Part shown: positions 13,170 to 57,237 of the stretch, piece after piece
Layout of the letters: the number at the start of each line of letters is the position of its first letter
Position numbering within the stretch: the stretch's first letter is position 1
Source: Eledone cirrhosa
Lineage: Eukaryota
DNA: 64,000 bases
NCBI GenBank assembly: GCA_964016885.1
Contig: OZ024740.1
Span: 233,492,001-233,556,000, forward strand
Direction: 5' to 3'
Translations under genes and position numbers: made by a program
The notes under the pieces: model-generated
Told to the model about the DNA's origin: nothing
Database searches by the model: none
What the model saw: the letters and a program-made list of their open reading frames with translations, nothing else

Positions 13170-14235
13170 TGAGACCCGGATAGTAACACTGAAGCAACAC
13201 CTTCAACAGAGGAAAAAGGTTGGCGACCATCTTGCTCAGGTTTATGAGCATGAAAAAAGAAATATCATTAGAATAGCGACTGATCTGGAGGAGAGATATG
13301 GAATAAAGCCTGATATAAATCTCTCACCCAGAGAAATCGGAAGATCCTATTCAATGTTCAAACAAGAAAAAAAAATTGACCAATTTACAGAGAAAGTTGT
13401 GCATGGATACTTGAGGCGTAAAACACAGACCATAGAGGGGATAAACCACTCAAAAAGCCTGGCATGGAGTTCCGACAAGTTTATGACATCACACCTTGAG
13501 GGATATCTCTATGCAATACAGGAACAAGAACTCCCTACCAAATATCTGCTGCACAAAAGAGGAGGGCCAGCAGCTGACAATAAATGTAGGCTATGTAAAA
13601 CAAAGATCGAGGATGTAAGCCACATTGTTGCCAGCTGCGAAAGAATGTCATCTCGCTACTACCTCCCCATGAGACACGATGGGATAGCTAGAACTATCTG
13701 GAACGCACTTCGGAAAACAAAATTAACAACAAACGAGGAAGAATATATTGAGACAGATGGCACTAAGGAATACTGGTGGAACCTGAAAATAAAAACTGCC
13801 ACCAAATTAAAGCACAACCGGCCTGATATTGTAGTTTGGGACCACACATTGAAAACGTGTTCTGTTGTGGAGATCAGCTGCCCACTTGATGTAAACGTTG
13901 TCAGAAAAATACAGGAGGAGGACATCTACGGACCATTGATGAGGAGTTTACAAATCCAGTATCCAAGATACACCTTTAGCTTCATACCCATCATTATTGG
14001 TGCTACGGGTTATATACCAACCCGCTTGGACCAAAGTATGACCGAACTTGGATTTGCGGACAAAAAGCGCAGCTCCCTAATTCATAGTCTACAAATGGCT
14101 GCGATAGCTGGCACCTTCAAAATTTGCAAAACATTCTTGCGATTCAAGGGATGACAATTTCTGTTCTTTTACAACCTTGCCACCAGGAAGGTGGCCGGTC
14201 AAAAAAATATACTCGAAATTAAGAGAAAGAGAAAA
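13170..14235 (+). mobile_element. 5'-truncated R4/Dong-like non-LTR retrotransposon (CCHC knuckle + restriction-like endonuclease) inserted in (TACA)n
   Basis: Open frame to the stop at 14154 with YAIQEQEL, CRLC..EDVSHIVASC, RHD, HNRPDIVVWD..VVEISCP and IPIIIGATG; short 3' UTR; (ACAT)n on both sides. Confidence 0.9.
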
Positions 14236-14964
14236 CATACATACATACATACATACATACACACATACATACATACATACATACACACATACATACATAC
14301 ATACATACATACATACATACATATAATTTTAGTCTCCCCAAATATGCACAAGATGACATAGCATCACTAATACTCACTTCCTCGTAATGCATTATTTCCA
14401 ATTTCCGTGCCTTGTTTGGTCATTTTATAGGCTGGAAGTTAGAGAGAGAGGGAGAGAGAGAGAGATAGAGAGAGAGATTGGCGGGGGGGGGCAGAGAGGG
14501 AGAGAGAGAGAGAGAAGAAATAAGAGAGATTAATATTAGTTCATAAGAATTGAATTCTACATATGTCTATGTATGCGTCAGTGCGCGTTTTTATGTGTAC
14601 GTTTATATATATATATATATATGTACGTTTATTTATATATATATATATTATATATATATATATATATATATATATATATATATATATATATATATATATA
14701 TATATATATATATAAATATATATATATATCAAAATTAAATATACATACCAACACATATATATGCCGTCTTCAGAAATAATGAAATATATTTATTGATAAT
14801 AACAACAATTCAAAATTACAGGTCTGTTTGGGAACAGAGTTCAAATTGACCAATGAAAACACAAAAAGTTTATACAGTTAGGTGTGTGTATATATGTAAA
14901 CTCTTGGTAGATTTATCTACATATATATATATATATATATATATATATATATATATATATATAT

Positions 14965-15140
14965 TAAAAGGTTTATCCCGAGTTCTTCAGAGGGTAACCA
15001 CAGTACGTAAGGTACTCAATACAAAGCAGAGTATAAATATACAGGACTAGAACTGATTCATACGGGAGAAATCATCAGAAAGCCCTGATGATTTCTCCCG
15101 AATGAAACAGTTCTAGTCCTGTAGAAGGCTTTTCTATATT
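14965..15140. mobile_element. Family B fold-back element with hammerhead
   Basis: Inverted repeat 15040-15078/15085-15123 containing CTGATGA-TTTCTCCCGAAT-GAAACAGTTC; related copies at 34586-34747, 49625-49678 and 60938-61032. Confidence 0.75.
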
Positions 15141-16065
15141 AAATATATATATATATATATATATATATATATATATATATATATATACACCCCACCCCCC
15201 TCACTCTCAAAAGCGTGAACCTAATAAACCTTTATTTGTCTGCCTCTCTGTTTTGTTCCCGTATAAATTTGCACTATATATATATATGTGTGTGTGTGTG
15301 TGTAACAAAGAGGGCGAAGTAAGATACCAGGTTGATCATAACGCACCAGAGTGTTCAATACTTAGGGTAATAAGAACAGAGTCAGGACAGCTAGATCCGA
15401 AATAAGCCACTAGTGTGAATACTGGTGGCTTAGTTCGGATCTAGCTGTTGAAACGGCCGGAGCTCAGCCGTCGGGGTGGTGACGCCTTTCCTATATATAT
15501 ATATATATGAGAGAGAAATAAGTTTCACATTAAAATGTTTTTCTTGGATATTGATCGTTTCATATGTCTCACAGACACAGAGGATAGGATCTCAATATTG
15601 GGAACAGGTATATCACCCGATTTAGTCCCAGAGCCAATAATCTGTGAAACATATGTACTCTTTATATGCAATGAAAATAAAGTGAAACTTAGTTCTCTCA
15701 TACTTACATATCATATGCACTCTGCTATAGTATCAAGTAATCTTTAGTATTCAATATATATATATATATATATATATATATATATATATATATATATATA
15801 TATATATATATATATATATATATATATATATATATATATATATATATATATATATATATATATATATATATATATATATATATATATATATATATATATA
15901 TATATATATGCAGGGAGTGTAACTTCGAGTTACTGTAGGTTCACACGGGTGAGCACTCTATGTTTAGGTTCACTTTAGTGTCGAGGTGTAGAGCTAGACA
16001 GAGTGTATTATAGTGAAATAAGATAACAAGGGCGATTGGTTACTCCTTCATTGCGTTTATTGGTT

Positions 16066-16150
16066 GGTGACGCACCTTTCGCTACTGATCAGCTTACGGT
16101 TCGATCTGTATCGATCTGACCCGACTCTGTTATCCGCGGCTCGTCAGACC
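16066..16150 (-). ncRNA. Type I hammerhead-like motif with extended stem II
   Basis: GGT-CTGACGA-GC...GC-GAAAGGTGCGTC-ACC followed by AATAAA; lies in the (TA)n-flanked element 15910-16175. Confidence 0.6.
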
Positions 16151-55700: not shown

Positions 55701-55855
55701 TTAGAGTTACACTCCCCGATATGTACTTCCTCTTTCACAATGGCAGTAGGGTGCGATTTCAGAGAATTTAACGTCTATAAAGAGGCTCCTTGTTGACTCG
55801 TAGTACTGTGAAGCTGTGCACTTACGCGGTGGCTTAGATCAATTCCTTGTATATG

Positions 55856-56250
55856 GCTAGAATTGGTGCTCTGAAATAGCGATATATATATGAATGTATA
55901 TATAGTGTATTTTGCAATACACTGTATGCAATACACTGTATGATATTTCAGAGCACCAATTCTAATTTTCAATTTCTGCTTGACCGGCAACCGCTCTGTA
56001 TGATCAGTTCCTGATTATTACTAGAATTCTATAAGAATCAAACATTCATGATTTTCAGCAAACAGGTGGAGTACTTAGTTTTGATAAGTACCAAATAGTA
56101 CGAAACAGAGCTCTGTCAGCTTTATCTCCCCCTGTTTGCTGAAAATTTAAAGTAAGTGAGACTGTCGCTACTCTAAAACAATAGCGTAAGGTCTTCGAAA
56201 TGCTTTTAATTAAGCATACAGTGTATTGCAAAATACACTATATATATATA
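55856..56250. mobile_element. Rearranged fold-back element with variant hammerhead inside a long hairpin
   Basis: Short inverted repeats 55858-55877/55955-55974 and 55901-55929/56214-56242; TTGATAA-GTAC CAAATA GTAC-GAAACAGAGCTC at 56081-56113, enclosed by a TTTTCAGCAAACAGG/CCTGTTTGCTGAAAA stem. Confidence 0.55.
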
Positions 56251-56518
56251 TATGTATATATATGCATGTTTGTATGTACGTATATATATATATATATATA
56301 TATATATGAAAAAGAGGTTGAAAATGCAATTTGAGTCTTTGAACATCTTTATTGACAAGTTATAAGTTATTGTAAATACCCTTGTTAAAGGCTCCAATTA
56401 CATTTTCAATTTCTTTTTCCTATATTTGACCCGTGTCAAAGAAAACATTACTTTCGAATATACGCCGCCGCCCTCCCACGCACAGGCAGTTGTTTATAGA
56501 TAGATAGATAGATAGATA

Positions 56519-57237
56519 TATTTCTTTATTAGCCACAGGGGCACAAAAGAAGGGGACAAATACAAAGGGGGAAGTTTACATACAATAAAAACGTGTAAAA
56601 TGTTATCACAGATGGAATTTAAAAAGTTACTCGATTTTCCCCAATAGAGGGAGACAGTTTATATGGGTAACACATACCCCCGAAAAAAAATGTGCAACCC
56701 TCATCTCCAGGAGTACGAAGAGTTTGTACTCCCTTCCTCTCCTCCTCCTTTTCCTCAACCTACAGGCTGATATAGAGAGAAGGCTCATTCACTCGGGCCA
56801 TTCTCGCCACTTTCACCCACCTTTCATAAAACTTGCTGGGGTACAGCACGTCTCTCTCCATCCTGATTCTTCTTCCAAAGTGGTATTTGAAAAAAAGAAT
56901 CAGTTGTTGGCCGGAGAGAAAGGTGTCTGACCTCAGCCCTTTCAACCTTGTCCACCATACAACCTCTTTCGCCATAGCTATCACACAAAGGAAAACCGCC
57001 TCTCCTTCGTTTTTGAAGGAGGGTGGCGGTTTGATCATGACAATGGACTCGGTGGTCAACTGGACTGGTCCCACCCGCGACAATAGTCGTTCTACATAGC
57101 CCCACAGGTCAGTGACGCCCGGGCAGTGTATGAATGCGTGCGCGACGGTTTCTTCGTCTTGCACGCACCTCGGACAGATCTTTTTTGCAGGGTCCCTGCC
57201 CGGGCGCCCATGTCTGTTGAGCTTGTCTCGAACTGGT
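56519..57237 (-). mobile_element. Tx1/L1-clade non-LTR 3' fragment inserted in (GATA)n
   Basis: LPVRDKL..CPRC..EETVAHAFIHC (zf-RVT-like CCHC), AKEVVW; 3' UTR with AATAAA; (TAGA)n on both sides. Confidence 0.85.

Follow-up and report, generated by a model that had tools for sequence, protein, structure and literature searches.

Unrelated retrotransposon families in microsatellites of Eledone cirrhosa: simple repeats as probable insertion targets

A stretch of 64,000 nt from the 3.0-Gb genome of Eledone cirrhosa (contig OZ024740.1, positions 233492001-233556000; all of it is referred to here as the window) holds several retrotransposons that are bordered by a simple repeat on both sides, which raises the question of whether these repeats are the targets into which the elements inserted, or sequence that the elements brought along as 3' tails. 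A preliminary description had placed two R4/Dong-like long interspersed nuclear elements (LINEs) with an RLE endonuclease in (TACA)n, a Tx1-like LINE in (GATA)n and derivatives of Penelope-like elements (PLEs) in (TA)n, and had proposed that the endonuclease types divide the repeats among themselves and help drive the load of simple sequence repeats (SSRs). The most likely reading of our results is that unrelated families each lie in their own microsatellite, on a fixed strand, by aiming at the repeat, with overlap between families. We refer to the Dong-like families as A and B, to the Tx1-like family as T, to the PLEs as Q (Neptune-type) and P (Hydra-type), to an RTE-type LINE as E, to its short derivative as C and to a further LINE as R (Table 1); these clade names are architecture-based.

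Repeats at 5' truncation points

For each family, we scored the best-scoring 30-40 copies out of 330-3390 candidates per genome search, and because the best-scoring candidates were chosen, the samples lean to young copies. The 5' ends were mapped against a full-length natural copy of each family, and a 5' flank was counted when a perfect repeat of at least 12 bp, read on the element strand, lay within 30 bp upstream of the copy; each count takes in the window's own copy. As a control we used a short repeat of 190 bp that is abundant, with clear target duplications and no microsatellite association.

(ACAT)n, which is the (TACA)n array in another register, stood upstream of 37 of the 40 copies of A and 32 of the 40 copies of B, against a background of 0.6% in the window (binomial P 1e-78 and 1e-63, respectively). 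Similarly, (TATC)n stood upstream of 18 of the 30 T copies that entered the count (40 places were scored and the other 10 left out), against a background of 0.1% in the window (P 4e-46). The reverse-strand motif was upstream of none of the 110 A, B and T copies, and the control repeat had either tetranucleotide in 0/30 copies and TA in 1/30. These counts bear out the earlier placement of the two Dong-like elements and the Tx1-like element, each with its repeat on both flanks. Moreover, the 5' ends are scattered across the whole element and nearly all of them abut the motif; since most copies are 5'-truncated at scattered points, the upstream repeat cannot belong to the RNA. On the 3' side, the register of A is fixed, with an identical 6 bases after the element end in 32/40 copies. 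T is looser, with some copies in unique DNA, and one T copy in non-repeat DNA (L051) has a 17-bp target duplication that begins with the TATC motif.

One could suppose that the repeats are only 3' tails, or that they reflect a repeat-rich genome in which insertions survive in harmless DNA, and indeed perfect SSRs make up 14% of the window and some 5' tracts (7/80) are the tail of an A or B copy lying upstream. Against this stand an enrichment of more than 100-fold at the 5' truncation points, specific for both motif and strand, the empty reverse strand, and a control at background level. The tail-only reading is excluded for A, B and T, and we regard this alternative as a whole as very improbable.

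Neighbouring copies also show a polarity. Of 160 sides of A and B copies, 21 had a further A or B copy across the tract, in each case with shared orientation (opposite orientation 0), and 22 had a C copy there, in each case with opposite orientation (shared orientation 0); T lay across the tract from T on 8 of 60 sides.

Architecture of the families and sharing of repeats

The A piece in the window is the 3' end of an open reading frame (ORF) for reverse transcriptase (RT) and RLE (327 aa), with CCHC, RHD and PD..E motifs. Full-length A is 4.2 kb long, with a single ORF of 1174 aa that matches RVT_1 and has these motifs at 985, 1014 and 1064; B (full length ~4.1 kb) carries the same motifs. 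The scored A copies are 99% identical, and B is 46% identical to A over the last 52 codons (window) and 49% at the aa level over 298 aa in longer copies. The best solved relatives of A are R2 proteins, and no named Dong/R4 reference was found among 40 homologues; for two elements, Argonauta hians supplied the nearest homologues with a species name among the matches listed. A pattern scan of residues 1-480 of A found no C2H2 zinc finger (B was not scanned in full), and a structure model predicts three helices at the N-terminus of A (pLDDT 80), with matches to Zeste, GT-1, Sap1 and TRF1 (Myb/SANT/trihelix) at Z 5-6, the best at Z 6.1 with a root-mean-square deviation of 2.4 over 64 residues.

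In the portions of the literature covered by our search, to which all citations here refer, microsatellite targeting is already established for each of the clades in question, as the preliminary description had said of Dong/R4, some Tx1 families and some PLE clades: for Dong, whose target is (TAA)n in most insects, molluscs and cnidarians (PMC7998251; see also PMC3774820), for Tx1 (PMC4494074), for RLE clades generally (PMC4640811) and for PLEs (PMC8557442). Like R4-clade Dong elements (Bombyx, ostracod, mollusc, cnidarian), A and B have a single ORF with RT and a C-terminal RLE and a microsatellite target; the N-terminal Myb/SANT-like domain without zinc fingers described for Dong may have a counterpart in the predicted N-terminus of A, which fits the description in PMC7998251, with the fold match at middling Z. 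Unlike the (TAA)n elements, A and B target a tetranucleotide, (ACAT)n, and they are two families of low mutual identity.

Full-length T is 5.85 kb long, with ORF1 followed by an ORF2 that has an N-terminal APE (PF03372), RT and a C-terminal zf-RVT. Its best solved match is L1 ORF2p (E 6e-48), and no named reference is among the best 120 of its 215 matches. T resembles Kibi in (TC)n, Koshi in (TTC)n and the crocodilian Tx1 families in (TTCC)n/(TTTC)n in its two ORFs, APE and tandem insertion, and its 18/30 lies well above the 20%-of-flanks threshold applied to those families (PMC4494074). It differs from them in its motif, its invertebrate host and its relaxed specificity.

The two PLE families both end in (TA)n. 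In the Q ORF we read RT, a CX5CxxC linker and a GIY-YIG with CCHH-type residues, the Pfam match of the latter (E 0.003) being below the curated cut-off. A sense pseudo-long terminal repeat (pLTR) lies downstream and an inverted pLTR upstream, so that tandem and inverted structure are both present, and 376 of the 1403 bp of the pLTR are masked as simple repeat. The 3' end of Q was in TA in 28/30 copies and in TA or TC in 30/30; the resolved 5' ends, read by eye, were mainly in TA.

P is present in the window as ~11 short copies with (TA)n at their ends. It is not a separate non-autonomous family but the 3' end of an intact PLE with a 784-aa frame: in 6 of 12 long copies, P sequence recurs ~1290 bp past the stop of this frame, at 94-96% identity and with (TA)n behind it; one of the remaining copies has a 78% match only and five have no P match in range (14 of 23 loci were covered, with 12 long frames). 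The P pieces are thus what is left of an intact family after 5' truncation, and most of them have an inverted end. The true 3' end lay in TA in 29/30 copies and the inverted end in 22 of the 23 in which it was found. DKT and CxCX5C were present in 12/12 long frames, and exact RWK in 0/12; in one frame that was read, CxxC and CxH are present and CCHH is absent, which together with DKT and CxCX5C makes up the Hydra-clade signature, and RWR stands in the N-terminal part. Since the P parent and the Q protein share only a 74-aa patch at 26%, they belong to separate clades. The earlier statement that PLE derivatives lie in (TA)n therefore holds for the ends of both P and Q.

In line with the Neptune and Hydra elements of PMC8557442, Q and P have a C-terminal GIY-YIG, a pLTR with an inverted 5'-truncated copy and a (TA)n bias; Q shares the linker and CCHH-type residues with Neptune, and the P parent shares DKT, CxCX5C, CxxC, CxH and the lack of CCHH with Hydra. 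The P parent differs from described Hydra elements in having RWR for RWK, in a tandem unit of ~3.5 kb (most Hydra are <3 kb) and in being abundant and intact here, with many 784-aa frames.

Several further observations concern PLE sequence. Five head-to-tail Hydra-type copies with a period of 3531 bp, four of them with open 784-aa frames, lie at G000:C1:437198536-437213199. The inverted pLTR of Q gives rise to a 460-bp inverted repeat (98%) at 43410-43869 / 47295-47746, and the pLTR ends of Q terminate at alternative 3' points (the long end in 18 and the short end in 12 of 30 copies). Another Neptune-type frame stands beside a Q copy in opposite orientation (L340:1893-2837, minus strand), and a decayed PLE RT fragment, 43% identical to Q over 44 aa, lies at 3808-3939 of the window. 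Short TA-flanked hairpins with a core that looks hammerhead-like by eye (14965-15135, 34586-34746, 49620-49677 and 60937-61032) are probably a third PLE family. An Rfam scan of the window at gathering score had no match of any kind, a hammerhead ribozyme included. Inverted-repeat pieces next to (TA)n at 31081-31527, 33380-33560, 34775-35053, 55860-56230 and 57340-57850 are likely to be ends of other PLE families.

The remaining families encode or derive from APE machinery, and for E and R the RTE name is taken from architecture, R being presumably RTE-like. E is an abundant LINE with a 1240-aa frame that matches PF03372 (APE), RVT_1 and, weakly, C2H2; 191 of the 398 bp of its 3' untranslated region (UTR) are masked as SSR. 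Its 3' ends were located in 9/17 loci, all of them running, as judged by eye, into an ATGT- or AT-type repeat (two more motif matches were set aside as not E ends). C, a retroposon of 606 bp, always has one and the same 3' end while its 5' ends vary; its positions 190-396 match the E 5' UTR (69-73% in 6 loci) and the last 30 bp (575-604) match the E 3' end (87% in 7 loci). The 5' flank of C was (ATGT)n in 15/30 copies, (TA)n in 7/30 and (ACAT)n in 0, and in a second, partly overlapping sample it was ATGT in 20/30, including 7 of 13 5'-truncated copies; the 3' flank begins with AT in nearly all copies. On the C strand, (ATGT)n is the A/B repeat on the opposite strand, and since C lies in (ATGT)n and E encodes APE, the repeat of the Dong-like families is probably also used, in reverse orientation, by an APE machinery. 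R, a single-ORF LINE with APE and RT, had (TA)n upstream of 13 of the 27 copies counted (30 loci, less 3 whose 5' ends could not be placed) against a background of 9.8% (P 4e-7) and GATA upstream of 0/27, and its tail is of (TAGA)n type in many copies.

C resembles the bipartite non-autonomous RTE derivatives of PMC5786205, an E 5' UTR-homologous piece being joined to the E 3' end, and the E 3' UTR, half simple repeat, resembles the simple-repeat tails of RTE (PMC2887409) and the octopus RTE with a microsatellite 3' UTR (PMC9115989). Unlike in those systems, the repeat of C is found also upstream of 5'-truncated copies, as a target would be, and its complement is the repeat that the Dong-like families use.

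Two assignments were rejected: R as the partner of C, as there is no DNA similarity between C and three long R copies and E was found instead, and 50536-50941 as the second Dong element, this piece being family C and the second Dong element being B. Two or more additional short families that resemble C (among them C2 and C3) have the same 3' end motif (window 32190-32500; L021, L002, L199); the 3' end of C3 matches that of E, and C3 too lies in ATGT.

The proposal that endonuclease types divide the repeats thus stands in part. Each family has its own motif and strand, yet the partition by type is not exclusive, because the APE families span (TATC)n (T), (ATGT)n/(AT)n (C, E) and (TA)n (R), and because (TA)n is common to two PLE clades and R, and ACAT/ATGT to RLE and APE families on opposite strands. 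C and R, the two families that break the partition, had been missed in the preliminary description.

Choice of site and length of tracts

Given the placement, strand, register, domains and array polarity observed, the sequences suggest which part of the protein or RNA would choose the site. We think it probable that insertion proceeds by target-primed reverse transcription into existing repeats, with protein recognition setting motif and strand for the Dong-like, Tx1-like and PLE families, and tail pairing helping more in the RTE case. A and B would bind (ACAT)n by the predicted N-terminal Myb-like domain together with the RLE; the repeat would be nicked at a fixed register, and reverse transcription would be primed there. 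T would nick TATC-type sites with its APE and would be less strict. In the two PLE families, GIY-YIG would cut (TA)n; as TA reads the same on both strands, the true 3' end would come to lie in TA, and so would the inverted end. E and its derivative C would use purine-pyrimidine repeats that start with AT, mainly (ATGT)n, aided by pairing of the short 3' tail. With each insertion the tract would be divided and in part duplicated, so that new copies come to adjoin old ones and mixed arrays result.

Alternatively, the RNA tail could pick the site: relaxed nucleases would nick many repeats, and only those nicks that pair with the 3' repeat units would be extended. This agrees with the tract motif and strand, which equal the sequence right after the 3' end in every LINE family here, with the use of three different motifs by APE families, with C taking both ATGT (15/30) and TA (7/30) before a nearly constant AT-starting 3' flank, and with the published simple-repeat tails of RTE (PMC2887409). 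When the motif is identical, tail and target are indistinguishable in genomic data, but they part company in R, where a (TAGA)n-type tail goes with TA and never GATA upstream; this mismatch argues against tail pairing as a general rule. In addition, T sites in unique DNA start with the TATC motif nonetheless, and PMC4494074 holds that the endonuclease mainly sets target choice. Site choice by the tail is a live alternative, if one that we hold only tentatively.

Tract lengths bear on a further alternative (2 B loci and 1 T locus with too short a flank were left out). The median 5' tract was longer than the 3' tract in A (81 vs 34 bp, longer in 30/40, P 0.004), B (56 vs 22 bp, longer in 27/38, P 0.007) and C (29 vs 14 bp, P 0.02), and T showed no asymmetry (22 vs 21, P 0.34). 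Where a C-type end faces A or B tail-to-tail, the tract added up to 130 bp (n=17), whereas size-weighted C tails would give an expectation of 64 (P 0.03, allowing 15-25 bp for the duplication). Both results are as expected if Dong-like insertions lengthen their own target, with slippage in the course of reverse transcription or of repair at the 5' junction adding units to a short ACAT seed so that the elements build the long arrays. A protein that has to bind a long stretch upstream, or that favours long arrays beyond proportion to their length, would yield the same numbers, and T shows nothing of the kind. Use of a seed-sized target was not seen either, the short internal ACAT run in the B 3' UTR being free of insertions in 52 copies and 6 variant copies. 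We therefore regard self-lengthening as doubtful; the asymmetry may reflect either a requirement of the proteins for much repeat upstream, coupled with a preference for long arrays, or the addition of units at the 5' junction.

Several points weigh against insertion aimed at existing repeats. No upstream run was present in 12/30 T, 8/40 B and 3/40 A copies. Imperfect repeat variants were common to the two flanks of one copy more often than under permutation (92 vs 20 in A, P 0.0002; 52 vs 26 in B, P 0.005; 26 vs 9 in T, P 0.009), but because the control repeat, through its ordinary target duplications, was also positive (P 0.0002), this shows only target duplication or array continuity, and not choice of a motif. 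The summed tracts of A and B (128 and 92 bp) far exceed the background arrays (median 25, size-weighted 37), an excess that plain insertion would not lead one to expect; this background, which also limits the case for self-lengthening, is a small set of 103 ACAT arrays from loci picked for other elements. The clade names rest on architecture, and the Myb-like fold of A is matched by its model only at middling Z. Lastly, no empty (pre-insertion) allele was seen in four runs compared at the T locus, three of them from one sample that may be the source of the assembly; as no piece spanned the site, the tract can only be presumed to have existed in full before insertion.

A bolder extension would be a self-feeding microsatellite community, in which RLE and APE machineries work on opposite ACAT/ATGT strands and Dong insertions write tens of extra ACAT units at the 5' junction, making the long arrays into which both these elements and their rivals insert in turn; we consider this distinctly unlikely.

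Repeat load, related systems and other features of the window

Perfect repeats of 2-4 bp amount to 14.0% of the window (AT 8.2%, AC 2.6%, ACAT 1.0%, AG 0.9%, AGAT 0.15%), and the Dong and Tx1 motifs contribute ~1.1 of these 14 percentage points. With a library of seven families, 8 of 22 ACAT and 2 of 4 TATC arrays in the window touch a library element, and at loci picked for other elements the counts are 3/37 and 2/18. For TA, 20 of 77 tested window tracts adjoin repeated sequence that is also anchored in TA at other places (22 of 125 flanks, with 6 of 600 among control positions). Drawn from a biased 1.1-Mb sample, this is a lower bound, and the count takes in tracts that lie within Q as well as some low-complexity noise. 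SSR cargo is also brought in by the elements themselves, in the E 3' UTR and the Q pLTR. The contribution of the elements that had been proposed is thus real, but they do not explain most of the SSR load, and a driving role is weakly supported for the tetranucleotides, as 34 of 37 unselected ACAT arrays touch no library element.

Two known systems recall parts of this arrangement. The Bombyx SART and TRAS elements in telomeric repeats (PMC10088271) are likewise two families on one repeat in opposite orientation; both are R1-clade, unlike the opposite-strand pair here, which sets RLE against APE on an interstitial microsatellite. Plant SaTar arrays (PMC5907723) are likewise unnested arrays of unrelated elements joined by a microsatellite, SaTars being DNA transposons. 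In Octopus vulgaris, Dong-R4, L1-Tx1, RTE and Penelope elements have been recently active (PMC13282606; no target analysis in the portion covered). While Dong, Tx1 and PLEs are all known to target microsatellites, an (ACAT)n Dong, a (TATC)n Tx1 or the opposite-strand RTE/Dong pairing was not found in the literature searched, the scope of which did not extend to Repbase, subscription papers and supplements; Repbase and the supplements of PMC13282606 and PMC8557442 may already hold these families or targets.

Three endonuclease classes are represented in this one genome by families that are young, intact and high in copy number, and whose repeat targets are sharp and differ from one another, which makes it testable whether the nuclease, the DNA-binding domain or the RNA tail is the chooser of the microsatellite; natural contrasts are offered by A and B, far diverged with one target, and by the RTE pair on the opposite strand. 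The arrays also account for microsatellite flanks often being multi-copy in such genomes, which matters for marker design and repeat annotation.

Table 1. Positions of the elements, adjoining repeat tracts and control repeat in the window
Feature	Position	Strand	Remark
(CATA)n tract upstream of A	13036-13170	+	target side; TRF and sequence
A, R4/Dong-like RLE LINE	13169-14234	+	5'-truncated
(ACAT)n tract downstream of A	14235-14323	+	
B, R4/Dong-like RLE LINE	21221-21617	-	5'-truncated
(ACAT)n tracts at both ends of B	21618-21656 and 21195-21220		motif on B's own strand
T, L1-group (Tx1-like) LINE	56519-57236	-	5'-truncated; zf-RVT C-terminus
(GATA)n tracts at both ends of T	56496-56518, 57237-57262	+	(TATC)n on element strand
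Q, Neptune-type PLE	43376-47751 (insertion)	+	ORF 44589-46340; both ends in (TA)n
P, Hydra-type PLE 3' end and short inverted end, just outside the range of the preliminary description	9754-9935	-	in (TA)n
P copy	16513-16650	-	in (TA)n
P copy	21056-21171	-	between (TA)n tract and 3' tract of B
Two P-related hairpin copies	42249-42673	-	(TA)n between them
P copy	48136-48242	-	in (TA)n
P hairpin copy	48695-48877	-	in (TA)n
C, short bipartite derivative of RTE-type LINE E	12152-12726	-	flanked by (ATGT)n on own strand
C	50536-50941	+	5'-truncated; at edge of (ATGT)n array 50418-50525; 15-bp target duplication
R, 3' end of single-ORF APE+RT LINE	19212-19380	+	(TA)n-associated
R, second copy	10003-10154	-	
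Control 190-bp short repeat	21962-22150, 26646-26832, 39045-39247, 51298-51499, 63714-63830		first interval used for the control counts

The window also holds a 23-bp minisatellite of 24 copies with 97% matches (1192-1749), with a decayed relative at 752-1093. Finally, two inverted-repeat pairs, of 272 bp (51907-52170 / 52495-52766) and 178 bp (57900-58075 / 58893-59070), stand around microsatellite-rich spacers and are possibly foldback elements or miniature inverted-repeat transposable element (MITE)-type elements.

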